Shown piece after piece: positions 2,581 through 64,000 of a stretch of 64,000 nucleotides of DNA. Positions within the stretch are counted from its first letter, which is position 1; each line of letters opens with the position of its first letter. The notes below the pieces were generated by a model that ran no database searches, had not been told where the DNA came from, and was given only the letters and a program-made list of their open reading frames with translations. A program made the position numbers and the translations under genes. Location: contig CAWKNI010000007.1 in the NCBI GenBank assembly GCA_963851005.1, positions 1,566,904-1,630,903 of the forward strand, in the 5' to 3' direction. The DNA comes from an uncultured delta proteobacterium. Its GTDB lineage: Bacteria; Desulfobacterota; Syntrophia; Syntrophales; Smithellaceae.

Positions 2581-4422
2581 ATGAGAATCATTTATATGGC
2601 AGATATTCACGGTGCCTTTGACCGTGTTAAAACTTTGTTGTCCGAAACAGTGGCGGATGTCTATATCATTGCTGGTGATATTATTGATATCCCCTTTTAC
2701 AACATGAGTACCGCAATCAATTACCATGAGCTTCAATCCTATTTTCACGGCTTGCGTGTCAGAATGCAAAAAGAAAGTATGGTCATCGAAGATTTTGTGG
2801 ATGAGTTGCTTGATACACCTAAAAATTCTGAGGAGATTGAAGAAAAAGGTACAAAATATCAGCGCTACACAATTCGTGCTCGCCGGGTATTGCAACAAAA
2901 ATACAAGGTTTTGGAAAATTACCTGGCAATGAAACAGAAATCTCAGATATTTGCCCTGCCCGGCAATTATGATATGGATTTGAAATATACGTCACTCCAC
3001 GAGCGGGATCTCCACCTGCATTGGCACGACATGCGCGGCTTAAGGGTTGCCGGCTACGGCGGAGCCAACATCTGGACTCCGGGGATTCCCGAACGTTACG
3101 TAGTACCTTATGGAGGAAGCGCAGATGCTGAAAGCGGCCGCAACGAAATGTATAATTTCTTCAAAGCCGTAAAGCCCGATATAATTGTAAGCCATCAACC
3201 GGCTCATGGTATTCATGACCGGGTAAACCAATTCGGAACATCCGGCTCGCCGGCTCTACGCCATTACTGCGATAACAATCACGTTCTTCTGTGTCTTACG
3301 GGTCATGTTCATATGGATTGGGGTTTTCAGGTCAGCGAGGAAACAATATACCTCAATCCATCTAATTTCGGAGAAGTAACAACCCTGACCGGCGGTGTTG
3401 CGGAAGGCGGCTTCTTCTACACTATCGAAATGGAAGGCAGAAATATTTCTAAAATCATCTTCAAGAAGCTTGTTGAAGACCGCATCCATGACATTGCCGA
3501 TTACTATCCTCAAAACGACGGACATTGGCAAGAAACAATTGTTGATGCCGAACGTTACAAAGCCCGCAAGCAGGGCGAAAACTTCGATTCAAAAACAGAA
3601 AAATACTCTCATATTCCTGAAGTACGACTCTACAATGATATTAAACAGTTTTACCGCATGTTCCAAACGGAAGAAACAGAAGAACGTCTAAACAAGCTCG
3701 AAGAGGTTGTTCATCTAATAGAAGAAGGTATTCACAATGTTCGTCCGACCGCATACGCGGTCGGACGAACGGAGCCGCGTCTGAAAGACGCTTGCTCAAC
3801 CGCTTGCGGCGGCGGAACAAGCGACTTGAACAGACTGGCCTGTGACCAGCAGTTCAGCCGCGGCTCCGATATAGCAATGGATATAATGGGTTCCACAAAT
3901 ATGGGACTTTGTGAGAACACTTCCGATATTGACTTTGTGATCTATGTTCGGTGTGATCCTGATTTTGAAGGAGACATCAATACCTGCAATCAATATAAAA
4001 ATGCCGAAAAGATTATCGAGAAAATCTTAAGCCCCCGGTATGCTTTTCAGATTTTAGACACTATTGATCTCAATATTGTGGAGAAAGCCATCAGGGGAAA
4101 AAATTATGAAAATGAAATGATGATGCGCTTTGTTGCTTACCGCTCCATCTGCCGACCTATAAACTATCGCTTCATCGCTCCGGTGGAGGATCTGCTAAAT
4201 CAGGACAGAGAATTCAGGACAGAGATTGAGGGAAGCATTCGTTCCTATTTCCAGATATTTATCAATACGTCGCAACATACCCGTTCATTCAAGAAATATG
4301 AAAGTCGGATCAAAGACATCGGCATCAAGATCCCAGAAACTGTACGGCTGAAGATCAAAGAGTACTTTGAACAGAATACTGATAGAATTGAATGCGCAGT
4401 GAAACCGGAAAAGATTAAGTAA
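2581..4422 (+). CDS. fusion protein: N-terminal calcineurin-like metallophosphoesterase plus C-terminal Pol-beta-type nucleotidyltransferase
   Basis: 613-aa ORF. Metallophosphoesterase motifs are ADIHG, AGDIID, GNYD, SHQPAHG and GHVHMD. The nucleotidyltransferase motif is IMGSTNMGLCENTSDIDFVIYV (a GS...DxD pattern). Confidence 0.7.
   Translation: MRIIYMADIHGAFDRVKTLLSETVADVYIIAGDIIDIPFYNMSTAINYHELQSYFHGLRVRMQKESMVIEDFVDELLDTPKNSEEIEEKGTKYQRYTIRARRVLQQKYKVLENYLAMKQKSQIFALPGNYDMDLKYTSLHERDLHLHWHDMRGLRVAGYGGANIWTPGIPERYVVPYGGSADAESGRNEMYNFFKAVKPDIIVSHQPAHGIHDRVNQFGTSGSPALRHYCDNNHVLLCLTGHVHMDWGFQVSEETIYLNPSNFGEVTTLTGGVAEGGFFYTIEMEGRNISKIIFKKLVEDRIHDIADYYPQNDGHWQETIVDAERYKARKQGENFDSKTEKYSHIPEVRLYNDIKQFYRMFQTEETEERLNKLEEVVHLIEEGIHNVRPTAYAVGRTEPRLKDACSTACGGGTSDLNRLACDQQFSRGSDIAMDIMGSTNMGLCENTSDIDFVIYVRCDPDFEGDINTCNQYKNAEKIIEKILSPRYAFQILDTIDLNIVEKAIRGKNYENEMMMRFVAYRSICRPINYRFIAPVEDLLNQDREFRTEIEGSIRSYFQIFINTSQHTRSFKKYESRIKDIGIKIPETVRLKIKEYFEQNTDRIECAVKPEKIK
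3739..3867. repeat. GC-rich, highly palindromic 129-nt segment lying in frame inside the 2581..4422 ORF
   Basis: A perfect 14-bp stem, GTTCGTCCGACCGC-atac-GCGGTCGGACGAAC, spans 3739-3770. A second hairpin runs from GGAGCCGCG-t-CTGAA (from 3771) to TTCAG-c-CGCGGCTCC (to 3867). 129 nt is 43 codons. By eye the segment is much more GC-rich than its flanks. Confidence 0.6.
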
Positions 4423-5379: not shown

Positions 5380-5745
5380 ATGACACTCGCTGAGAGTGAT
5401 CCAAGCTGAAAACGAATCCCGACGAGTCGGGATGAAGTTTGAAGCGTAAGGCAAACCATACCAGGCGCGTAGCGCCGTGGTAAAGCAAGTTCCGAGAATC
5501 GGGACGAAGCTCGTCCCTGACACCTTAAGGTGGTGGGATAATTCGCTCTAAGATTTTCCGAACACTGCGTGTCGGAAAATCAAGGTTCATTAAAGCGTAA
5601 GTGGTAGTGAGGCAAGCTGAAGACGAGTGCAACAAAGTATGAAGCGTAAGCCGAACTATCCAATAGCCAAAAGCTATTGGAAATTATCCCCGAAGTGTAG
5701 CGGAGTGGGATTATATTAATAGACAGAATTTAATCTGGCAATTAG
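5380..5745. repeat. mosaic array of short palindromic units (repeat family 2)
   Basis: At least 8 successive hairpins, including CACTCgctgaGAGTG, ATCCCGACgaGTCGGGAT, GGGACGaagcTCGTCCC, TTTTCCGAcactgcgtgTCGGAAAA, CCAATAGCcaaaaGCTATTGG and ATTATCCCC-n15-GGGATTAT. The linkers GAAGCGTAAG and GGGATAATTCG recur. Homologous units occur at 34395-34685 and 62545-62670. Confidence 0.7.
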
Positions 5746-5909: not shown

Positions 5910-7133
5910 ATGACACATACAGCGAAAAAAAACACTGGTCAGGACACTGATGAGACCTCTCAATGGCGTTTGACACTTTTTGTCATGTTCATTGCCCAAT
6001 GGATTTCTATTGTGGGCTTTTCCTTCGTTGTACCCTTCATCCCCTTCTATATCCGTGAGATAGGTGTGACAAATGAGAAGTTGGTGCCAATCTGGGCCGG
6101 GATTCTGATGACAGCATCAAGTCTAACCATGACTATTTTCGCGCCATTCTGGGGCTGGCTTTCAGACCGTTATGGTCGAAAACTCATGGTTGAACGGGCC
6201 ATGTTTGCCGGCGCAATCATTACTATGGCCATGGGAATCATCGGCAATGTTTATCAACTCCTCATTCTGCTTCTGCTTGAAGGCGCCTTCACCGGAACCT
6301 TTTCTGCCTCCATTTCCCTTGTTTCATCTGTTGTGCCTGGCACGAAACTGGGGTTTGGGTTGGGTCTCATGCAGGTCGCCGTTTTTTGGGGAATATCTTT
6401 AGGCCCTTGGATTGGCGGCATGATTGCCGATATCGTCGGCTATCGTTTGACCTTTATCGCAGGGGGGGCTATTGTGCTCTTTGGTGGTATACTTGTTATG
6501 ATTGGGGCAAAGGAAAAATTTGTTCGCCCTTCTACTATATCATTGAAACGAAGTGGAAGCATGAAGGCACTCTTTGCCCTGCCGGGTTTTATCTCCTTGA
6601 TGATCGTCTTTCTCCTATTCAACTTTTCGATAAATATCCCCAGCCCAATTATATCGCTGTTTATCGAAGCAGTCGGAAACTTAAAGACACGAGTTGCCTC
6701 CACGACAGGGTTGCTACTTGCTGTTACCGGCGTCACAGCCTCAATTTCTGCTGCCGCCACCGGTTATTTGAGCGACCGTAGAGGTCACAAACAAATCATC
6801 ATTGTCAACCTGTTCATCACAAGTATCCTGATGGTTACCCATGCCTTGGCTCGAAACATAGACCAATTGCTCGCTATTCGGATACTTTCTGGATTTGCGG
6901 TTGGAGGAATTCTTCCCACCATGAATGCGCTCGTGGGAAAATTAACTCCAAAGGAAAACTTCGGAAAGGCCTACGGGTTGATGACTTCAATGACTTCTCT
7001 CGGTACAACGCTGGGACCATTAGCTGGTGGTATCATGGCATCCTATATGGGACTTCGATGGCCCTTTGTCGCCGTTAGCTTCCTCTTGAGTCTAGTCGTG
7101 ATCCCCTTAATCTTAAGCTTGAAGCCTCGCTAG
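5910..7133 (+). CDS. MFS transporter (multidrug-efflux-like, about 12 TM segments)
   Basis: Hydrophobic repeat architecture with the MFS motif GWLSDRYGRKLM. I moved the start to the ATG at 5910 (MTHTAKKN...), because the track's N-terminal extension overlaps the repeat array. Confidence 0.85.
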   Translation: MTHTAKKNTGQDTDETSQWRLTLFVMFIAQWISIVGFSFVVPFIPFYIREIGVTNEKLVPIWAGILMTASSLTMTIFAPFWGWLSDRYGRKLMVERAMFAGAIITMAMGIIGNVYQLLILLLLEGAFTGTFSASISLVSSVVPGTKLGFGLGLMQVAVFWGISLGPWIGGMIADIVGYRLTFIAGGAIVLFGGILVMIGAKEKFVRPSTISLKRSGSMKALFALPGFISLMIVFLLFNFSINIPSPIISLFIEAVGNLKTRVASTTGLLLAVTGVTASISAAATGYLSDRRGHKQIIIVNLFITSILMVTHALARNIDQLLAIRILSGFAVGGILPTMNALVGKLTPKENFGKAYGLMTSMTSLGTTLGPLAGGIMASYMGLRWPFVAVSFLLSLVVIPLILSLKPR

Positions 7134-8801: not shown

Positions 8802-8929
8802 TATACTATTTCTAAATCAAAGATGATAACGAGGCGGCAAGGCGTATTATACACGCATGACCTTTAGGTTATATGTCGAGGAGACGATGACGAGTCCAAT
8901 GCAGAGAGCGCTTTGATTTGGAATCGGAA
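8802..8929. mobile_element. MITE-like palindrome-ended element, copy 1 (degenerate right end, with a 16-nt mini-palindrome inserted at its centre)
   Basis: Left end TATACTATTTCTAAATCAAAG and right end CTTTGATTTGGAATCGGAA. The interior GAGGCGGCAAGGCGTATTATAC is homologous to the other copies. It abuts the cobO stop codon (8930). Confidence 0.75.
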
Positions 8930-9538
8930 CTAGTACTCAATGCCTGCGCGGTCTTTTATGCCCGCCATGTAATGATGTTTCACTTCCTTAACTTCGCTGA
9001 CGGTATCAGCCAGCTCAATTATTTCCGGCGGCGCATAGCGGCCGGTTAAGATTAGGTCAAGGTTTGCGGGCTTATTTTTAATCAATTTAATGACCTCTGT
9101 TAGAGCAATTAGTTTAAAATCCAGAGCTACGTTGATTTCATCGAGAATGACCATGTCATATTTTCCACTTTTGATTGCTTTTTGGGCCGCATCCAATCCT
9201 TTTTGTGCCAACTCAACATCAATGGCCGCGGGGTTATCACGCATAACAAAACTATCCAGACCGGACATGCGAATGGTTAAATGGGGAAGATATTTTTCCG
9301 CGGCAATAAATTCACCGTACTTTCTTCCTTTCATAAATTGCAGAACAAAAACCTTATAACCCTGACCGATGGCGCGCAGAGCCTGGCCAAAAGCGGCAGT
9401 TGTTTTTCCTTTGCCGTTGCCCGTAATTACTATCACCAAACCCTTGGCTGTCTTTATGGCAGGCTTTTTCACGGCTGTAGATTTCTTTTTTTTGACTGCT
9501 TTGGGTGCGGACATTTTTTTGCTTTTTGTGATCTTCAT
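8930..9538 (-). CDS. cobO: ATP:cob(I)alamin adenosyltransferase (CobA/CobO/BtuR type) with a Lys-rich N-terminal tail
   Basis: P-loop ITGNGKGKTTAAFGQALRA, then VLQFMKG, DMVILDEI, LILTGRYAPPEIIELADTVSEVKEVKHHY and GIEY. Confidence 0.85.
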   Translation of the reverse strand: MKITKSKKMSAPKAVKKKKSTAVKKPAIKTAKGLVIVITGNGKGKTTAAFGQALRAIGQGYKVFVLQFMKGRKYGEFIAAEKYLPHLTIRMSGLDSFVMRDNPAAIDVELAQKGLDAAQKAIKSGKYDMVILDEINVALDFKLIALTEVIKLIKNKPANLDLILTGRYAPPEIIELADTVSEVKEVKHHYMAGIKDRAGIEY

Positions 9539-10972: not shown

Positions 10973-11095
10973 GTACCGTTTCGATTTCAAAGGATAACGC
11001 GGCGGCAAGAAGGAGGCGCCGGAGGCGTATTACTAATACGTTGAGGACGCCGACGACGATGCCAACAAAGTTAGCCAAAGAAAGCGAAATGGTAC
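10973..11095. mobile_element. MITE-like element, copy 2 (diverged ends), between the two mcm subunit genes
   Basis: GTACCGTTTCGATTTCAAAG...GGCGTATTACTAATACGTTGAGGACGCCGACGACGATGCCAACAAAG...GAAAGCGAAATGGTAC. It fills the 156-nt gap between the stop at 11095 and the start at 10938. Confidence 0.7.
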
Positions 11096-12777
11096 TAATA
11101 TAGTCCCGGGTCTCGATACTCCCCATAAACTTCCCGATAGACATCACATATTTCCTGCAGGGTAGCCAGATTCTTTACCGCTTCGATGCAGTGCGGCATC
11201 ACGTTTTCGCCTTTTTTACAGGCATTTTTTATATTTTCCAGCGACTTCATGGTGGTGCGGTTATCGCGTCTGCGGCGCACGTCCTTAAGCCTTTTAATTT
11301 GCTCTTCGCCCACCTTTTCATCAATATCAACAAGCGGAATCGGATGTTTGGCGTCGGTTTCATATTTGTTCACTCCAACCATGATCTTGTCGCCCGCATC
11401 CAACTGTCTTTGAAACCTGTAAGCAGCTTCGGATATTTCCATCTGCGGGAACCCTTTTTCAATAGCGGTAATCATACCGCCCATCTCATCAATCTTATGA
11501 ATATATTCCCATGCTTTTTCTTCCATTTCGTTGGTGAGAGACTCGATAAAGTACGAACCGGCCAGCGGATCAATGGTATTGGCCACTCCCGTTTCTTCGG
11601 CTAATATTTGCTGCGTGCGCAGAGCGATTTCTACGGCATGCTCGGAAGGCAGGCAGAGAACCTCATCCAGCGAATTGGTGTGCAGCGATTGTGTGCCGCC
11701 AAGCACTGCCGCCAGGGCTTCCATTGTCGTGCGGATAACATTGTTGTATGGCTGTTGCGCTGTCAGTGAACATCCGGCCGTCTGGGTGTGGAAACGAAGC
11801 CACCACGAGCGGGGATTTTTCGCCCGGAAACGATCTTTCATAATTTTAGCCCACATGCGGCGCGCGGCCCTCAGTTTGCAAATTTCTTCAAAAAAATCGA
11901 TGTGAGAATTAAAAAAGAAAGACAAGCGAGGGGCAAAGTCATCAACGTTTAATTTCTTGCGGCGGACGACATCTTCAACGTATTCGATGCCGTCGCGGAT
12001 AGTGAAAGCCAGCTCCTGTACAGCCGTGGAACCTGCCTCACGAATGTGATAACCACTGATGCTGATTGTATTCCAATTGGGAACAAATTTTGTGCCGAAC
12101 TCAACCGTGTCGCTGATAAGCTTTACGGAAGGTTCCGGCGGGCACATAAAGGTTTTTTGGGCAATAAATTCTTTGAGCATATCATTTTGGATGGTGCCGC
12201 CGATTTTGGTAAGCGGCACGCCTTTGGCTTCAGCCGCCGCGCAATACATCGCCCATAACACGGTCGCCGGAGGATTAATTGTCATGGAAGTTGTAACCTC
12301 ATCCATAGGAATATCTTTCATGAGAGCCAGAAAATCTTCCAGTGTGTCTATGGCCACGCCGCATTTTCCCACTTCGCCCAGCGCTTTAGGTGAATCGCTG
12401 TCGTAGCCCATGAGTGTCGGAAAATCGAAAGCTGTACTTAAGCCCGTTTGCCCCTGACGCAGCAGCAAGTGCCAACGCTGGTTGGTATCCTGCGCGCTGC
12501 CCATGCCCGAGAACATACGGAATGTCCAGTAACGTCCCCGATAACCGGTCACCTGATTGCCGCGCAAATAAGGAAATTCGCCGGGAACACTGATATCTTT
12601 GGCGAAGTCTATGTCTTTAATATCTTCCGGAGTATAAAGCCTTTTGATTTCCAGATCGGAAATGGTGGAAAAACGATTTTTCTGATCGGGATTATTTTTT
12701 AGTGATTTTTTTACTTCATTCACCCATTTTTGGGTGAGTTTTAATGAAGCTTCCCGCATTTCTTTGGAGAAATACAC
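11095..12777 (-). CDS. methylmalonyl-CoA mutase, large catalytic (N-terminal TIM-barrel) subunit
   Basis: 560 aa, with FPYLRGNQVTGYRGRYWTFRMFSGMGSAQDTNQRW, LSTAFDFPTLMGYDSD and HTQTAGCSLTAQQPYNNV. Confidence 0.92.
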   Translation of the reverse strand: MYFSKEMREASLKLTQKWVNEVKKSLKNNPDQKNRFSTISDLEIKRLYTPEDIKDIDFAKDISVPGEFPYLRGNQVTGYRGRYWTFRMFSGMGSAQDTNQRWHLLLRQGQTGLSTAFDFPTLMGYDSDSPKALGEVGKCGVAIDTLEDFLALMKDIPMDEVTTSMTINPPATVLWAMYCAAAEAKGVPLTKIGGTIQNDMLKEFIAQKTFMCPPEPSVKLISDTVEFGTKFVPNWNTISISGYHIREAGSTAVQELAFTIRDGIEYVEDVVRRKKLNVDDFAPRLSFFFNSHIDFFEEICKLRAARRMWAKIMKDRFRAKNPRSWWLRFHTQTAGCSLTAQQPYNNVIRTTMEALAAVLGGTQSLHTNSLDEVLCLPSEHAVEIALRTQQILAEETGVANTIDPLAGSYFIESLTNEMEEKAWEYIHKIDEMGGMITAIEKGFPQMEISEAAYRFQRQLDAGDKIMVGVNKYETDAKHPIPLVDIDEKVGEEQIKRLKDVRRRRDNRTTMKSLENIKNACKKGENVMPHCIEAVKNLATLQEICDVYREVYGEYRDPGLY

Positions 12778-15926: not shown

Positions 15927-16059
15927 TATTATACCAATTCTAAATCAAAGCGCTATTTTTGTTGGCTTCGTTGTCGGCTTCCTCAACGTATGTAAAATAC
16001 GCCTCGTCGCCTCTGCCTAGCCGCCTCAATATCATCTTTGATTTAGAAATGGTATTATA
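15927..16059. mobile_element. MITE-like element, copy 3 (archetype)
   Basis: TATTATACCAATTCTAAATCAAAG CGCTATTTTTGTTGGCTTCGTTGTCGGCTTCCTCAACGTATGTAAAATACGCCTCGTCGCCTCTGCCTAGCCGCCTCAATATCAT CTTTGATTTAGAAATGGTATTATA. It is followed at 16060-16085 by a family-2 hairpin, CCCCAcagcttacgTTGGGGTATAAT. Confidence 0.85.
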
Positions 16060-21663: not shown

Positions 21664-21904
21664 AATACCATTACTAAATCAAAGATGATATTGAGGCGGC
21701 AGTGAAACTCGAATTACAGTTACGCAGTAAACTGGAATTCGTTAGTTGAACTGTCCCGCTTCGGCGGGGCTAGGCTTAAGGCCCGGCATGCGCCGGGTAA
21801 ACTCTGAGGCGTATTATACATACGTTGAGGAAGCCGACAACGACCCAGGCATACGCCGGGCTTCGCTGCCAACAAAAATAGCGCTTTGATTTAGAATTGG
21901 TATA
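21664..21904. mobile_element. MITE-like element, copy 4: composite variant with nested inserts
   Basis: Canonical ends AATACCATTACTAAATCAAAG...CTTTGATTTAGAATTGGTATA. A 73-nt insert (21701-21774) matches the insert in copy 5. Extra hairpins are CCCGGCatgcGCCGGG and CCCAGGCatacGCCGGG. Confidence 0.8.
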
Positions 21905-23655: not shown

Positions 23656-24986
23656 CATTACTGTCCGGTTAATTTAAATTTATTACATTAGAAAATGAAT
23701 AATAACAAACAAATAAATACGTTTCTTATTTTTATCGATTTGAAAATTATTTTCCGTTATATCTACCTCCATTTTATTATTGGAGGTGTGAATGATGAAT
23801 GCTGGAAGAACAGTATTTTCACAAATCATGGACTACGTGCCTATGTATGAATTTCGTAAATGCGTGGATCGGTACAATGGCAATCATCACACCAGCAGCT
23901 TCGCCTGTATGGATCAATTTCTCTGCATGGCCTTCGCACAACTTACGTACAGAGAAAGCCTGCGGGATATTGAAGCCTGTCTCCGTTCACGTCAAGAGAA
24001 ACTTTATCATCTCGGTATTCGCGGCCGCATCTCTCGTAGCACACTTGCTGATGCTAATGAAAAACGAAACTGGAGAATATACGCCGACTTCTGTCAAATC
24101 CTGATTTCTCAAGCACGATCTCTTTACGCCAATGAAGATTTCGGTATCGAGTTGGACGACACAACGTATGCCTTGGATTCAACAACCATCGATCTTTGCC
24201 TTTCTCTTTTTCCTTGGGCAGCTTTTCGTAAACATAAAGCTGCTGTCAAGATGCATACCCTTATGGACATCCGTGGCAACATTCCCTCGTTTATCGAAGT
24301 GACTTCCGGGAATATCCATGATGTAAATATTCTGGATATCCTTACTCTCGAACCAGGTGCTTTTTATATTATGGATCGCGCCTACCTGGACTTTGCCAGG
24401 CTCTATAGCATTACCCAACTTCTTTCCTTCTTCATCACACGGGCGAAGAAAAACACGAAGTTTCGCAGAATCTATTCTCATCCCGTAGATCGTAACTGTG
24501 GTCTCATATGCGATCAGACGATCATGATGGTTAACTACCAATCACTGCAAGATTATCCCGAAAAACTGCGCCGCATAAAATATTTCGATTCTGAAAGAGC
24601 AAAACAACTTGTTTTTCTGACCAACAACTTTCTTCTTCCCGCATTGACGGTTGCCAACCTTTACAAGTGTCGCTGGCAAATCGAATTATTCTTCAAATGG
24701 GTCAAACAGCACCTGCGAATCAAGGCCTTCTACGGCACTTCCGAAAATGCGGTTAAAACTCAAATATGGATTGCCGTTGCCGCTTACGTTCTTGTTGCCA
24801 TCATTCGTAAACGTCTTTATCTGGAGCATAATCTCTACACAATTCTTCAAATCTTGAGTGTCACACTCTTTGAAAAAGTACCACTAAATCAACTATTTGA
24901 AAATTACGATTGCAAAATGCTCACCGATTTCAAAGAACCGCTATATAACCAACTGAATCTGTTCGACTATTAACCGGACAGTAATG
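23656..24986 (+). mobile_element. IS4-family insertion sequence (1331 bp) with an 18-bp perfect IR and a 9-bp TSD
   Basis: IRL is CATTACTGTCCGGTTAAT (23656-23673); IRR is its reverse complement (24969-24986). The direct repeat ATCCTAAAT occurs at 23647-23655 and 24987-24995. Confidence 0.88.
23792..24973 (+). CDS. IS4-family DDE transposase
   Basis: 393 aa, with ALDSTTIDLC, YIMDRAYLDF and YKCRWQIELFFKWVKQHLRIK (the Y-RE-K signature). The stop codon lies inside IRR. Confidence 0.9.
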   Translation: MMNAGRTVFSQIMDYVPMYEFRKCVDRYNGNHHTSSFACMDQFLCMAFAQLTYRESLRDIEACLRSRQEKLYHLGIRGRISRSTLADANEKRNWRIYADFCQILISQARSLYANEDFGIELDDTTYALDSTTIDLCLSLFPWAAFRKHKAAVKMHTLMDIRGNIPSFIEVTSGNIHDVNILDILTLEPGAFYIMDRAYLDFARLYSITQLLSFFITRAKKNTKFRRIYSHPVDRNCGLICDQTIMMVNYQSLQDYPEKLRRIKYFDSERAKQLVFLTNNFLLPALTVANLYKCRWQIELFFKWVKQHLRIKAFYGTSENAVKTQIWIAVAAYVLVAIIRKRLYLEHNLYTILQILSVTLFEKVPLNQLFENYDCKMLTDFKEPLYNQLNLFDY

Positions 24987-28308: not shown

Positions 28309-28505
28309 GATACCAATTCGCATTCATTCTTCTACCTTTGTTGGCTGCGTCATCGGCTCCTCGACGTATATTAGAATACGCCTGCGTCGCCTCTTCCTTG
28401 CCCCGCCGAAGCGGGACAGTTCAACTAACGAATTCCAGTTCACTGCGCAACTGCAATTCGAGTTTCACTGCCGCCTCGGTATACTTTTGAATGCAAAATG
28501 GTATG
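28309..28505. mobile_element. MITE-like element, copy 5: composite variant with diverged but still complementary ends
   Basis: ATACCAATTCGCATTCA...TGAATGCAAAATGGTAT. The interior TTTGTTGGCTGCGTCATCGGCTCCTCGACGTATATTAGAATACGCCTGCGTCGCC is homologous to the other copies. The nested 73-nt insert lies at 28397-28469. Confidence 0.75.
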
Positions 28506-29110: not shown

Positions 29111-29312
29111 ATATGAGGGTTGTTAAAAATATAGGCGGGTATTTACTCAACGATTTTTCTATGTGAAGTGTATGTTAGGTTAGTGTACTAATTCCGCTCA
29201 AAAGCTCTTCAATGTTTCTGAAAAGAGAGTCTATTTTTTTCCCAAAACTTCCTCGGGAATACACAAACCAAGTGCGGCGATGGCTGCACTGGATAAGTAG
29301 GTGATTTTTTTA

Positions 29313-30263
29313 ATGAGCAGCGACGCAGAAATTAAGTTATACAAAAAGCTGGCCGAGATAGGTGATGCTGCCGCCCAAAACCGGTTGGGTTTGATATCCC
29401 AGCATGGTGAGGGTGTTCCGCAGGACTATGCCGTGGCCGTCAAATGGTATCTCAAGGCGGCCGAACAGGGTTATGCTGCCGCCCAGAATAATCTGGGTTT
29501 AATATACCAAAGTGGTAAGGGAGTTAAGCAAGACTATGTTGAGGCCGTCAAATGGTATCTCAAGGCGGCTGAACAGGGTTATGTTGAAGCCCAGAATAAT
29601 CTGGGTTTGATGTACCAGGATGGTAAGGGAGTTGAGCAAGACTATGCTGAGGCCGTCAAATGGTATCTCAAGGCGGCTGAACAGGGTTATGCTGATGCCC
29701 AGAATAATCTGGGTTTGATGTACCAGAATGGTAAAGGTGTTGAGCAAGATGATGCTGAGGCAATCAGATGGTATCTCAAGGCGGCCGAACAGGGTTATGC
29801 TGCTGCCCAAAATAATCTGGGTTTGATTTACCAGAATGGTAAAAGTGTTAAACAGGACAATGTTGAGGCAATCAGATGGTATCTCAAGGCGGCTGAAAAT
29901 GGTTCTGCTGATGCCCAGAATAATCTGGGGTGGATATACCAGAGTGGTAAAGGTGTTAAGCAGGACAATACTGCAGCCATCAAATGGTATCTCAAGGCGG
30001 CTGAACAGCGTAGTGCTGTTGCCCAGTATAATCTAGGTTTGATGTATAGCAGAGGATTGCAAGACTATGCCGAGGCTGCAAGATGGTTTTTAAAAGCTGC
30101 TGAACAAGGAATTGCGGATGCACAGTTCAATTTGGGTTTGATATTAGAAGAAGGTAGAGGCGTTAAACAGGATTCAGATTCTGCTGCGATGTGGTATAGT
30201 GAAGCGGTTGAGCAAGGACATGCGGATGCCCAGTTAAGACTGGATAAGATAAAAGATAAATAA
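29313..30263 (+). CDS. Sel1-like repeat (SLR/TPR-like) protein
   Basis: About eight 36-aa repeats of AAQNNLGLIYQ.GKGV.QDY.EAVKWYLKAAEQGY. The ATG at 29313 is preferred over the GTG at 29301. Confidence 0.9.
   Translation: MSSDAEIKLYKKLAEIGDAAAQNRLGLISQHGEGVPQDYAVAVKWYLKAAEQGYAAAQNNLGLIYQSGKGVKQDYVEAVKWYLKAAEQGYVEAQNNLGLMYQDGKGVEQDYAEAVKWYLKAAEQGYADAQNNLGLMYQNGKGVEQDDAEAIRWYLKAAEQGYAAAQNNLGLIYQNGKSVKQDNVEAIRWYLKAAENGSADAQNNLGWIYQSGKGVKQDNTAAIKWYLKAAEQRSAVAQYNLGLMYSRGLQDYAEAARWFLKAAEQGIADAQFNLGLILEEGRGVKQDSDSAAMWYSEAVEQGHADAQLRLDKIKDK
29367..30050 (+). repeat. 108-bp tandem repeat inside the Sel1 gene
   Basis: GTCAAATGGTATCTCAAGGCGGC recurs at 29439, 29547 and 29655, with variants at 29763, 29871 and 29979, giving an exact 108-nt period. 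Long runs are identical at the nucleotide level. Confidence 0.85.
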
Positions 30264-34134: not shown

Positions 34135-34262
34135 TAATTCCATTTCTAAATCAAAGCGCTATTTTTGTTGGCGTCGTTGTCGGCCTCCTCAACGTATGTA
34201 TAATACGTCTCGTCGCCTCCGCCTAGCCGCCTCAATATCATCTTTGATTTAGAAATGGTATA
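34135..34262. mobile_element. MITE-like element, copy 6
   Basis: TAATTCCATTTCTAAATCAAAG...CTTTGATTTAGAAATGGTATA. The interior is nearly identical to copies 3 and 7. Confidence 0.85.
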
Positions 34263-34394: not shown

Positions 34395-34685
34395 TTAAAA
34401 GTAAATTCAAATCCCGCGTCCCTGCCAACTACGTTGGCGGGATTGTTCCTCTTGCGCTTCGAGCTTCTCTCAATTCACTCTCAGCGAGAGTCACGATCGC
34501 TACGCTCTTGGGATAATTTCCAATAGCCGTTGGCTATTGGATAATTCGGCTAAAAAACTTCAATGCGCCTATAGTGACCTTTAGGTTATTTGCTTTTGAA
34601 GTTTAAGCCTCATTACGACTAACAAGTTTCAGTCGTAGATGACCTTCAGGTTATTCACTACGTTCCTAAAACTTGAGTCTCATTA
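34395..34685. repeat. mosaic array of family-2 palindromic units, overlapping the rbp stop codon
   Basis: AAATCCCGC-n19-GCGGGATT, ACTCTCAGCGAGAGT and GGATAATTTCCAATAGCcgttGGCTATTGGATAATTCGG. Two stem-loop modules follow, ending in AGCCTCATTA and GAGTCTCATTA. Confidence 0.7.
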
Positions 34686-47865: not shown

Positions 47866-47951
47866 GTTTCAAATCCCGCGTCGCTTCGCTCCTGGGATAA
47901 TTCGACTAGCAAATATTACGGCACTATGTTTGTAATATTTGAGTCTCATTA
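47866..47951 (+). repeat. family-2 module: ATCCC-n16-GGGAT hairpin, GGGATAATTCG, a variable-stem hairpin, then GAGTCTCATTA
   Basis: GTTTCAAATCCCgcgtcgcttcgctcctGGGATAATTCGACTAG CAAATATTAC ggcactatgttt GTAATATTTG AGTCTCATTA. Confidence 0.7.
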
Positions 47952-50998: not shown

Positions 50999-52525
50999 TC
51001 ACAAATAAAAAAACGGCGCGTGGTTGGAAGTGAAGAATTCCGGTGTGCGTCGGAGTATAGGAGCTATTGCTGAATGCTTCTTAAAAGTTTTCTCTAAAAA
51101 ATTGCGCACAACAGGCCTCTGCCAGCCAAAGGGGTGCTGAAAGTTTTTGTATAGAGACAAATCGCCTTCATAAAAATCATTAGTCGCGAGACTTTGCGCC
51201 TCAACGCTCTGAGCCGGCAAATTAAAAATCGCAAGATTTAAAAAGTCAATACAGTCATGATGCTGACAAACGAAATCCAGCGTCTCGGTCGCGCTTTCCT
51301 GTGTTTCCGGCGGTGTGCCGAAAAGAAAATAACAATAAGTTACAATGCCCGCCTTTTTCAGCGTTTTTAAAACTGCTGAAGCTGTCGGCAAATCTATCCC
51401 TTTATTTAATCGATCAAGCACTTTCTGATCACCGGATTCGATTCCCAGTTTGAGCATGACACAGCCGGTGCGTTTTAAGGATAAACAAAAATCTTCATCA
51501 GCCAAATGTTGAGTGATCCGGGTAAAGCCATACCAGGAAGCGCCCGGCGGTCTTTGCGACAGAGCTTTCAAGAGCGATGGCGAAATTGAGCTATCCAGAA
51601 TATGAATCAGAGCAGGGTTCATCTGCCGCGTTAATGTTTGCAATTCGTTTGTGACCTGAGAAAACTCAAGCGGCAAATAAGCATTGCCTTCCGCTTTTTC
51701 CGGACAAAAAGCGCATTTGTGCCAGTAGCAGCCACGCGCGCTGCTGTAGGGAAGAATCAGACCGGGCGATAAATATTTATCAAGCGGAAAACCATTGTAA
51801 TCAGGCGGGCAATTTGTGTTGCCGTCTTTAACGTTCAGAAGCTCCAGTAACTTTTGTTCTCCGGCGCCTGCGACTATTTCATCCACAAGACCGCAAAAAA
51901 TATTTATCTTAACACCTAGTTTAATCCAGGATGTAACCAGCGATCCGCCTAGAATAATTTTTTGCCGCGGCTGAATTTGTTTGATGAAGCCGATCATGGC
52001 AAAAGTACAAAGCGCCTGGCTGAGGTAATTTAAAGAAAAGCCAATAAAAGCGGGGTTGCACTCTAGAGCGTTCGTCAGACGATTTTTAAAATAAGAGTAG
52101 AAAGGATTATCCTGAAAGTTTTCGGCTGCAGAAATTAAGTCGTCGCTCTTCACCGGCGAATGCTTTTTATCTTGATAATCGGCAAGAGACAAGTCAACAT
52201 TAAACGATTTGCCCGCCACATTTAATAAATGATTGATATCCATAACTGTCCGCTGGTAGCGGCTTAGATTTTGGTAAGTGGCTATGTTTCGCAACGCGAT
52301 AAGATTTGCCTCCATTTTTTTGCGGGCGCGCGCTGTCCAGTGATCTGTTGCCGTATTTTTATTAGAAACTTGAGTAAGCAAAAAGAAGATGCCTTCCAGA
52401 TTGGCGTCGATAACATTGTGCGAAATACCGTTTTCTTTCAGACAGGTGGATAATCTGGCGATGCCCGCAGGTGGTTCTGAACATTTGGTAATTGGCGAAT
52501 GGATGAGGATTATTTTTGGCGACAT
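50999..52525 (-). CDS. B12-binding-domain radical SAM protein
   Basis: The N-terminus has a B12-binding-like fold (KIILIHSP...). The radical SAM cluster is ARGCYWHKCAFCPE. Confidence 0.82.
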   Translation of the reverse strand: MSPKIILIHSPITKCSEPPAGIARLSTCLKENGISHNVIDANLEGIFFLLTQVSNKNTATDHWTARARKKMEANLIALRNIATYQNLSRYQRTVMDINHLLNVAGKSFNVDLSLADYQDKKHSPVKSDDLISAAENFQDNPFYSYFKNRLTNALECNPAFIGFSLNYLSQALCTFAMIGFIKQIQPRQKIILGGSLVTSWIKLGVKINIFCGLVDEIVAGAGEQKLLELLNVKDGNTNCPPDYNGFPLDKYLSPGLILPYSSARGCYWHKCAFCPEKAEGNAYLPLEFSQVTNELQTLTRQMNPALIHILDSSISPSLLKALSQRPPGASWYGFTRITQHLADEDFCLSLKRTGCVMLKLGIESGDQKVLDRLNKGIDLPTASAVLKTLKKAGIVTYCYFLFGTPPETQESATETLDFVCQHHDCIDFLNLAIFNLPAQSVEAQSLATNDFYEGDLSLYKNFQHPFGWQRPVVRNFLEKTFKKHSAIAPILRRTPEFFTSNHAPFFYL

Positions 52526-52527
52526 AG

Positions 52528-52655
52528 TTTACCAATTCTAAATCAAAGCGCTATTTTTGTTGGCGTCGTTGTCGGCGTCCTCAACGTATGTATAATACGC
52601 CTCGTCGCCTCCGCCTAGCCATCTCAATATCATCTTTGATTTAAAAATGGTATTA
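52528..52655. mobile_element. MITE-like element, copy 7, with 2 nt between it and the radical SAM start codon
   Basis: TTTACCAATTCTAAATCAAAG...CTTTGATTTAAAAATGGTATTA. The interior is nearly identical to copy 6. Confidence 0.85.
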
Positions 52656-55085: not shown

Positions 55086-55123
55086 GCCCTGAACCTTATA
55101 TGCAAAAAGGTTCAGGGCTTTTT
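55086..55123 (+). terminator. intrinsic terminator after lemA
   Basis: GCCCTGAACC-n13-GGTTCAGGGC followed by TTTTT. Confidence 0.75.
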
Positions 55124-55182
55124 AATGAGACTCAAATTTCAAAAACGCAGTGAATTGAAATTTGTTAGCCGAATTATCCCGG
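55124..55182 (-). repeat. family-2 module (minus orientation)
   Basis: The reverse complement reads CCGGGATAATTCGGCTAA CAAATTTCAA ttcactgcgttt TTGAAATTTG AGTCTCATT. Confidence 0.7.
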
Positions 55183-63893: not shown

Positions 63894-64000
63894 ATTATAC
63901 CATTTCTAAATCAAAGATGATATCGCGACGGTAAGGAGGAGGCGACGAGGCGTATTATATATACATACGTTGAGGAAGCCGACGACGAAGCCAACAAAGA
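63894..64000. mobile_element. MITE-like element, copy 8 (truncated by the window edge)
   Basis: TATTATACCATTTCTAAATCAAAGATGATATCGCGACGGTAAGGAGGAGGCGACGAGGCGTATTATATATACATACGTTGAGGAAGCCGACGACGAAGCCAACAAAGA. It begins 29 nt upstream of the acyl-CoA dehydrogenase start. Confidence 0.8.

Follow-up and report, generated by a model that had tools for sequence, protein, structure and literature searches.

A family of hairpin-forming repeats in the Smithellaceae, eight copies of which lie in the 64 kb stretch of DNA analysed here (the window), is probably a MITE which duplicates a 3-bp TWA target, is moved in trans by a DDE transposase and has been retained as an orientation-dependent hairpin module at the level of the transcript. 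The eight sites, at a density of about one copy per 8 kb, are those named in the original prediction, and all were found again. Pairwise repeats connect all of them, a pattern drawn from the element ends (TATACCAWTTCTAAATCAAAG) gave 10 matches with three or fewer mismatches in the window where 0.02 were expected by chance, and a covariance model (R1), built from related sequences outside the window, returned exactly these eight copies and none elsewhere, with scores of 54-151 bits. Reading the window copies base by base places the element proper between T(A/T)CC and GG(T/A)A, with a length of ~123 bp (121-126 bp), and two long copies of 237 and 193 bp carry nested inserts. We orient each copy by its purine-rich strand, termed A (B being its complement), and name the two ends A5 and A3 accordingly. 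The A strand is the plus strand in four window copies and the minus strand in the other four. The inverted ends, the CGTAT-loop-ATACG hairpin and the two purine-rich arms that do not pair with each other, all part of the architecture first proposed, are present, and the proposal that the copies occur in both orientations and are intergenic and close to gene ends is borne out for the window. The 3-bp target-site duplications (TSDs), the covarying inner stem P2, the changes on both sides of the stems and a 31-codon frame were absent from that description.

The copy at 15932-16054 (A strand on the minus strand, 123 bp) has stem type A, scores 151 bits against R1 (E=1.9e-33) and runs from TACC to GGTA between two identical TTA triplets, at 15929-15931 on the left and 16055-16057 on the right. 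The two arms of its terminal stem P1, 15932-15952 and 16034-16054, pair with each other and enclose the conserved unpaired 3′ arm with the 3′ strand of P2 (15953-15984, minus strand; A strand GAGGAAGCCGACAACGAAGCCAACAAAAATAG), the central hairpin P3 (15985-16003, AACGTAT-GTAAA-ATACGCC on the plus strand) and the conserved unpaired 5′ arm with the 5′ strand of P2 (16004-16033, minus strand; A strand GATATTGAGGCGGCTAGGCAGAGGCGACGA). Three more copies are of type A: that at 34138-34260 (minus, 147.4 bits) is flanked by TAA/TAA on the plus strand and its A strand folds at -45 kcal/mol (z=-7.8), that at 52530-52652 (minus, 142.7 bits) has flanks GTT / TTA, and that at 63898-64000 (plus, 102.6 bits) is cut by the window end and so 3′-truncated, with its left TSD, TTA, at 63895-63897. 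The A3 end of the copy at 52530 lies 4 nt from the called start of an ORF at 50999-52525 (minus), and orthologous copies are found at loci L090 and L042. The copy at 10974-11094 (plus, 130.8 bits) has stem type C (TACCGTTTCGATTTC / GAAAGCGAAATGGTA) and a decayed duplication (TCG / CTA), in which CTA is the stop codon of the ORF at 11095-12777 (minus). A type-D-like stem (TACCATTTTGCATTC...) occurs in the copy at 28311-28503 (minus, 58.5 bits), which also holds a nested module X (28400-28469) and is flanked by TGA/TGA on the plus strand. The stem sequences of the copies at 10974 and 28311 differ with both sides altered together, and stem types A, C and a D-like stem are present together in this one window. 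The longest copy, at 21666-21902 (plus, 237 bp, 53.8 bits, TSD TAA/TAA), contains module X at 21701-21770 (plus), in the 5′ arm after GGCGGC, together with two small GC hairpins; the hairpins of module X covary and one is capped by C(UUCG)G. The copy at 8804-8929 (plus, 57.8 bits) is decayed, with its core partly replaced; its flanking triplets, TTA / CTA, agree at two of three positions, and the right one is the stop codon (TAG) of a minus strand ORF at 8930-9538. A perfect TSD flanks four of the seven complete window copies (15932, TTA; 21666, TAA; 28311, TGA; 34138, TAA).

Beyond the window, the exact core motif ATACGTTGAGGANGCCGACNACGA was found at no fewer than 105 loci (that is, at least 105) in a species-representative genome collection, and among the matches listed it occurred in ~40 assemblies, essentially all of them Smithella, Smithellaceae, Syntrophaceae or unclassified 'Deltaproteobacteria'. 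Two odd labels were seen among the core-motif matches, one a 2.8-kb contig binned as 'archaeon' and the other an 'uncultured bacterium'. In 734 kb of the core-motif loci R1 identified 120 copies. Two window copies have flanks that align with contigs of Syntrophaceae bacterium fen_1165 (76-93% identity), so that the window derives from a relative of this bacterium. Plasmids gave no match to the element, viral contigs gave zero matches to the core pattern, and the 17-base end pattern gave 34 single matches in viral contigs against ~23 estimated by chance, which is chance level. Searches of Rfam 15 returned zero matches at the gathering score for the whole window and zero even at E≤10 for one copy with its flanks, in agreement with the earlier remark that the element was not recognised as a named MITE or Rfam family, and full-text literature searches returned no paper on repeats of Smithella or Syntrophaceae. 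The family is Smithellaceae-specific and undescribed in the literature searched. The novelty originally claimed stands for the family itself and falls for its kind, MITE-like hairpin repeats being already known.

Alignments of 64-76 copies, and then of the 120 R1-aligned copies, resolve three stems around two unpaired arms: P1, the terminal stem of ~20 bp, in which 92.5% of cells pair across the 120 copies; P2, an inner stem of 6 bp (GAUANN / NNUAGC); and P3, the central 7-bp hairpin (GGCGUAU-loop-AUACGUU). The 5′ arm is approximately GAGGCGGCWAGGMGGAGGCGACGAGG and the 3′ arm approximately GAGGAAGCCGACRACGAYGCCAACAAAG, both are 70-80% purine on one strand, and they therefore cannot pair with each other. 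Some copies carry extra modules at fixed points, namely X (~65-70 nt), placed after GGCGGC, and small GC hairpins, and the central loop of some copies has an extension of ~18 nt or, more rarely, an insert of ~80 nt at this point. Module X is not tied to one stem type, being present with A, C and D, and on the A strand the nested hairpins have a C(UUCG)G cap in two independent cases and a GUAA cap in one. Across all stems 94.5% of cells pair in the 120 copies, against 30-40% when the partners are slid by 1-3 columns. Changes on both sides of a pair were found in 344 cells, with covariation at 14 of 14 P1 pairs and four of six P2 pairs, the copies being related by descent so that cell counts overstate the number of events. 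Stem type A/B (TWCCAWTTCYAAATC) is found in 57 copies, type C (TACCATTTCGCTTTC) in 13 and type D (TACCAAGTTGCATTC) in 11, each at many loci, and there are in addition many single stem variants, fully compensated. The core is shared across stem types A-D, and at loci L105 and L140 the sequences of P1 and P2 are entirely different with the arms kept; a metagenome scan for further L105-type stems returned the same locus only. The best conserved part of the element is the unpaired purine-rich core, and the terminal stems vary freely yet stay paired. As the sampling of copies relied on an exact 22-base core motif located in the 3′ arm, conservation of that arm is inflated, yet the 5′ arm and the remainder of the 3′ arm, outside the sampling motif, are at least 90% conserved.

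The mismatches that the stems do contain differ between the two strands. Most of the non-Watson-Crick cells are G.U when read on the A strand, and A.C, the mirror image, would read as G.U on the complement. Counted on the A strand, cells with G.U outnumber those with A.C by 83:32 in P1, 78:9 in P2 and 206:4 in P3. Among 73 unique P1 stems the cells stand at 62:20, whereas distinct states stand at 13:12 and singletons at 4:6, and this combination of symmetric states and singletons with an excess of G.U cells implies that both mismatches arise equally and that the G.U variants alone spread or persist. In 86 of 89 copies the A strand also has the better fold of the two strands, and the means of A strand and complement differ by ~9 kcal/mol (-43.4 vs -34.5 kcal/mol). 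These observations are suggestive rather than decisive of a preference for the purine-rich strand, tolerating G.U but not A.C, since the copies are kin by descent and an alignment fitted by a model favours G.U.

The element inserts at T-W-A with a duplication of 3 bp and has moved since Smithella species diverged. In 52 of 112 copies the triplet before TACC and that after GGTA are the same, where permutation gave an expectation of 23 and a maximum of 35 (2000 permutations). The duplicated triplets are TTA, TAA, TGA or TCA; TTA/TTA occurs 26 times and TAA/TAA 21 times, and TTA with TAA only three times, which identifies the triplets as a direct duplication and not as part of the inverted repeat, for which the opposite pattern would be expected. 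The target logo reads T (79-85%), W, A (83-91%) in AT-rich surroundings with no wider motif, and the terminal TACC and GGTA bases of the element are conserved. A TA duplication of the IS630/Tc1-like kind was considered and ruled out, the variable middle base making the duplication 3 bp and placing TACC within the element. The one clean case of a filled against an empty site is the pair L067/L099: the filled site in L067 reads ...TAATTA[TACC...GGTA]TTATACAGG..., and the orthologous site in L099 is empty, TAATTATAC (in context ...TAATTATACAGG...), an exact restoration of the target. A second candidate for an empty site, opposite the copy at 21666, was rejected, the orthologous site in L053 containing another repeat. 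MITEs are generally under about 300-800 bp, and the element is small and non-coding, with terminal inverted repeats, a TSD of fixed length and a filled and an empty site. Copies are found in both orientations in tandem, convergent and divergent intergenic regions, and all four intergenic kinds are occupied.

The only IS in the window, at 23656-24986, belongs to the IS4 family and, as first described, has ends unrelated to those of the element. In the window and the 105 loci (0.86 Mb of Smithellaceae DNA), a search for long inverted-repeat pairs returned no transposase-bearing relative with these ends and a search for multi-copy ORFs returned none, which extends to a larger sample the earlier remark that no autonomous partner is in view in the window. 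The best long-inverted-repeat candidate, L076 3062-4373, was discarded as two small hairpin repeats flanking an ordinary gene. Our guess is that the mobilising enzyme is a DDE transposase acting in trans, IS5 (IS1031-type) or PIF/Harbinger-like, an assignment taken from the 3-bp TNA/TWA duplication by itself. The target duplication of PIF/Harbinger elements is TWA, and the ends of the element start with TACC, unlike any IS5 or Harbinger ends known to us. For the IS1031 group of the IS5 family, three nucleotides are recognised as the insertion site (PMC2516522). One would not expect a transposase that reads terminal repeats to act on several stem types with only ~5 terminal bases in common.

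Copies are constrained at their sites of insertion, and change far less than their flanks in the alignments. Several insertions are common to different species at orthologous sites, and in eight of 11 orthologous pairs the copies are 94-99% identical, with 300-nt flanks mostly at 76-89% and in one case (L054/L100) at 95%; in a decaying trio (L043, L068 and L082) conservation is no better than in the flanks. In sliding windows the element forms a conservation peak beside barely alignable intergenic DNA, equal to or above that of the adjacent genes. Orthologues also have private variants in common, such as TAGTTGGAGGCAACG in L054/L100 and a loop variant in L055/L094, which points to descent rather than gene conversion towards a consensus.

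The orientation of copies relative to neighbouring genes is non-random, as judged on gene calls from a simple longest-ORF heuristic. Overall, orientation is nearly balanced and the bias is found only close to gene ends. The nearest gene lies at a median distance of 20 nt from the A3 end and 113 nt from the A5 end, with a gene within 30 nt of 63 of 109 A3 ends vs 24 of 113 A5 ends (p=3e-8). At A3 the duplication is also a stop codon in 27 cases, and at A5 in six; between convergent gene pairs the A3-side duplication is the stop codon in 18 of 34 copies and the A5 side in none. All gene starts within 30 nt of a copy lie at the A3 end, 17 being co-oriented and none anti-oriented. Between tandem genes with little other spacer, likely operons, the purine-rich sense is on the mRNA strand in 14 of 17 copies, and between tandem genes with long spacers in 11 of 27. 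The A3-side stop triplets (TAA:TGA:TAG = 13:9:3) resemble the genome-wide ratio (289:177:109) and the A5-side copy of the triplet stays TTA; we take this for the usual drift of stop codons following old insertions at TAA, which would explain the odd TTA/TCA flank pairs. The genes next to the copies are unrelated and include radical SAM, universal stress protein (USP), ankyrin, RNA-recognition motif (RRM), DUF3187 and acyltransferase genes.

In the mechanism that we propose, a DDE transposase of the 3-bp-target kind supplied in trans would mobilise the element, and the resulting copies would act in cis when co-transcribed with their neighbours. In the purine-rich sense the long hairpin may be no obstacle to read-through, within operons or in 5′ UTRs, and the pyrimidine-rich sense may be tolerated only where a transcription unit ends, the copy typically beginning at the stop codon. 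The pyrimidine-rich sense of the arms contains 38% C vs 25% G, with CCUCC motifs, and might hinder downstream expression, either through masked ribosome-binding sites or through Rho loading. As regards simpler signals, no GC-rich stem with a T-run, as in an intrinsic terminator, was found at the copies and the flank logo contains no U-tract. A promoter-like T(T/C)GTCG-N16-TATAAT on the pyrimidine-rich strand is present in 41 of 90 copies and uses the variable loop; an internal promoter was rejected, as this pattern shows no enrichment at positions from which it could serve a gene. No conserved extra sequence, promoter or flank was found on the A5 side.

The same observations could be read as those of a purely selfish or neutral MITE, in which stems are kept by quasi-palindrome template switching and the recent spread of master elements, and in which placement reflects the purging of harmful insertions. 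The TSD, the empty site, the many copies, the occupation of all four intergenic kinds and the balanced overall orientation relative to genes agree with such an element, as do the symmetry of new mismatch states (13 G.U vs 12 A.C) and the decay of some copies (8804; L043, L047, L070), and quasi-palindrome correction is an established mutational process (PMC3820800). We nevertheless think a neutral element rather unlikely, for template switching has no means of correcting the unpaired arms, and yet these are the best conserved part, orthologues retain private variants at 94-99% identity where the flanking intergenic DNA is barely alignable, and high copy number has been reached by G.U variants and not by A.C variants. 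A further and somewhat more doubtful proposal is that the functional part consists of the purine-rich internal loops, held in a hairpin of which only the pairing matters, so that the element would be a mobile structured-RNA or ssDNA module which carries an orientation-dependent regulatory device into many places in Smithella genomes, maybe moved by an enzyme that reads structure and not end sequence. Movement by way of a single-stranded intermediate, the purine-rich strand as DNA or RNA, with an enzyme reading the fold and the internal loops, would explain stems that drift freely around a fixed core, and is in keeping with the core kept across stem types A-D, the completely different stems of both L105 and L140, module X in stem types A, C and D, G.U pairs tolerated on one strand only and the lack of a classical partner in the 0.86 Mb of Smithellaceae DNA. 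This route is improbable given the fixed 3-bp T-W-A duplication, the mark of a DDE transposase that cuts both strands in a staggered way: no duplication is left by the single-strand transposases that are known, those of IS200/IS605 and the REP-associated tyrosine transposases (RAYT), and with target-primed reverse transcription the duplications vary in length. The terminal TACC and GGTA are moreover conserved, as expected of cleavage sites, and the L105 stem type was found at a single locus.

Two readings that dispense with a mobile, non-coding element fare worse. That the copies are independent structured RNA genes or riboswitch-like leaders would fit the strong covariation, the conserved loops and the UUCG and GNRA loop caps, and is very improbable because the TSDs and the empty site show insertion, the copies lie in both orientations beside unrelated neighbour genes, and neither an Rfam match nor a conserved promoter or flank upstream was found. 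The least credible reading of all is that the element would encode a small acidic peptide (29-31 residues, M(M)I[PSL]RRLGGGDEAYYTYVEEADDDANK...). About half of the type A/B copies, three in the window among them, have an open frame of 29-31 codons, and two 18-nt loop expansions preserve it. It has no ribosome-binding site, in types C and D the ATG is missing and the frame is shifted by 1 nt, and loop-length differences of 1-2 nt break it in many copies; its variants (synonymous:non-synonymous 10:32) equal the neutral expectation of 0.23, and Pfam gave no significant match to the predicted 29-31-residue peptide. The coding hypothesis was ruled out on the neutral ratio of variants, the frame breaks and the absence of the frame from types C and D, and the view in the original prediction that no copy holds a credible ORF can be kept, the 31-codon frame of the three window copies being open without coding constraint.

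The preferred reading, a transposase-moved MITE retained as a transcript-level hairpin, has its closest counterparts by behaviour, judged by analogy, in bcr1, ERIC and Correia, and by duplication in Tourist/IS1031-type elements. The family does not belong to bcr1, ERIC, Correia, Nezha or REP/REPIN, because the duplication length and the host differ, and because its ends vary where those of Correia are fixed. In the Bacillus cereus group, bcr1 is a dispersed intergenic repeat of ~150 bp with short direct repeats, a distribution that is not conserved between strains and a fold kept by compensatory changes (PMC3184786). Our element resembles it in being dispersed and intergenic, in its short flanking direct repeats and in its compensated fold, but differs in host phylum, in sharing no sequence similarity and in its 3-bp TWA where bcr1 has a direct repeat of 5 bp; transcription has also been demonstrated for bcr1, whereas that of the Smithellaceae element is inferred only. 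Longer variants of ERIC exist, with inserts at set positions inside the repeat. ERIC is an imperfect intergenic palindrome of ~127 bp, co-transcribed, with orientation-dependent effects on mRNA reported (RNase E) and no known transposase (PMC3184786). ERIC termini carry 5′-TA-3′ and its hosts are Enterobacteriaceae, where our element has TWA and Smithellaceae hosts; the core of our element is a non-palindromic pair of purine-rich arms. Membership of ERIC was ruled out by the 3-bp duplication and by the hosts, which among the matches listed are Smithellaceae-type MAGs.

Correia elements make TA target duplications, have 26-bp repeats of fixed sequence, and are transcribed into hairpins that are processed. 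They (NEMIS/CREE, in Neisseria) are MITEs of 104-157 bp with long terminal repeats, present in many copies near gene starts and ends, with promoter activity and no known transposase (PMC3184786). They contain an IHF site and share no sequence similarity with the Smithellaceae element, whose membership of Correia/NEMIS was ruled out since its ends differ and vary between copies and its duplication is 3 bp. Tourist-type PIF/Harbinger MITEs and the IS1031 group have a 3-bp target in common with our element, but no related transposase gene or common terminal sequence was found. Nezha, a cyanobacterial MITE, is alike in size (130-170 bp), in the label of MITE and in base composition, but the direct repeat of one of its copies is 10 bp (CATTATCTAC), its ends are those of ISNpu3 and its hosts are Anabaena and Nostoc; a Nezha or cyanobacterial origin was ruled out by the Smithellaceae hosts and the 3-bp duplication. 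REPs leave their target unduplicated and are associated with a RAYT gene. They are 20-40 bp long and have GTAG or CGTC heads (PMC3733652). None of these traits was seen in our element. Like REPs and REPINs, our repeats are dispersed, form hairpins and evolve by compensatory changes within a genome; membership of the REP/REPIN-RAYT system was ruled out by the 123 bp of the element, its TACC ends and its 3-bp duplication. Elements of the IS200/IS605 type have neither terminal inverted repeats nor a duplication and insert 3′ of a fixed tetra- or pentanucleotide; this type too was ruled out, as inverted ends are present and the triplet has a variable middle base that agrees between the two sides, the mark of a duplication.

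Smithella is a key syntrophic degrader of alkanes and propionate and is known mostly from MAGs, and the repeat offers a practical marker in this genus and is a source of assembly breaks; at about one copy per 8 kb in the window, masking or annotation is advisable. Whether ERIC, Correia and bcr1-like MITE repeats have any role in their hosts is an old open question. The comparative signal in the Smithellaceae is unusually clean, with ~40 species, conserved orthologues, covarying stems, a fixed core and a sharp polarity at stop and start codons, and the family could serve as a test case for mobile hairpins that have been domesticated as elements of untranslated regions.

Some copies of the hairpin-forming repeat family carry a nested module of ca. 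65-70 nt, module X, which is found in two of the copies in the window, at 21701-21770 (+ strand) and 28400-28469 (- strand), and at six Smithellaceae-type loci elsewhere (L042, L073, L114, L123, L138 and L139). Its insertion point is constant, at the same position of the element's 5' arm every time, and it contains two hairpins of its own, which covary and have UUCG, GUAA, UUCA, UUGA or AUUA loops. Three different types of terminal stem are represented among the copies that carry it. In copies at L039, L070, L076 and L082 a separate repeat (...GGGAGCGCATTCC..AAGGAGAGCGCATAAT...) is inserted in, or has taken the place of, the terminal stem's 3' arm. L076 also holds a small hairpin repeat, CCAATTCCG-N12/13-CGGAATTGG, at 3062-3097 and 4335-4373, on both sides of an ordinary 391-aa gene. 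The stem of this small repeat is similar to the outer portion of the element's terminal stem.

The window contains further repeats besides the element. Two dispersed pairs, one at 5649-5702 and 34498-34551, the other at 47894-47951 and 55123-55180 (GGGATAATTCG...TAATGAGACTC), both include GGGATAAT-like motifs and may belong to one common family; sequence similar to the second pair fills ca. 4023-4245 of L053, the place there that is orthologous to the site of window copy 21666. A tandem array of six to seven copies of a 108-nt unit (61-94% identity) occupies 29238-30173, inside an open-reading frame (29301-30263) which looks like a gene for a repeat-domain protein.

Twelve copies, for example those in L054, L056, L066, L074, L084, L103 and L130, exhibit mismatched flanking triplets, with TTA at the 5' end of the purine-rich strand and TCA at its 3' end, and in seven of the twelve the adjoining gene has its TGA stop codon at this TCA. 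Boundary stop codons (13 TAA, 9 TGA and 3 TAG) match genome-wide usage, which suggests that the stop codons drifted after old insertions. L103 has two copies in direct tandem (6705-6981) with a spacing of 145 nt and the flank repeated too; these are one local duplication, not two insertions. A typical type A copy (L115) lies on a 2.8 kb contig binned as an 'archaeon' MAG (DASVJT010000098.1), which is probably a mis-binned Smithella contig.

The repeat family is unrelated to the intact IS at 23656-24986, which has perfect 18 bp inverted ends (CATTACTGTCCGGTTAAT) and which we read as an IS4-family type from the DUF4372 and DDE_Tnp_1 domains of its open-reading frame (23792-24973). Three window copies (15932-16054, 34138-34260 and 52530-52652) contain an open frame of 31 codons on the - strand (MILRRLGGGDEAYYTYVEEADNDANKNSALI), which begins just within one stem and ends in the other at a TAG. 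In appearance the arms are codon-like, yet the changes are neutral, with 10 synonymous and 32 non-synonymous. The frame might be what remains of the ends of a transposase gene that has been lost.
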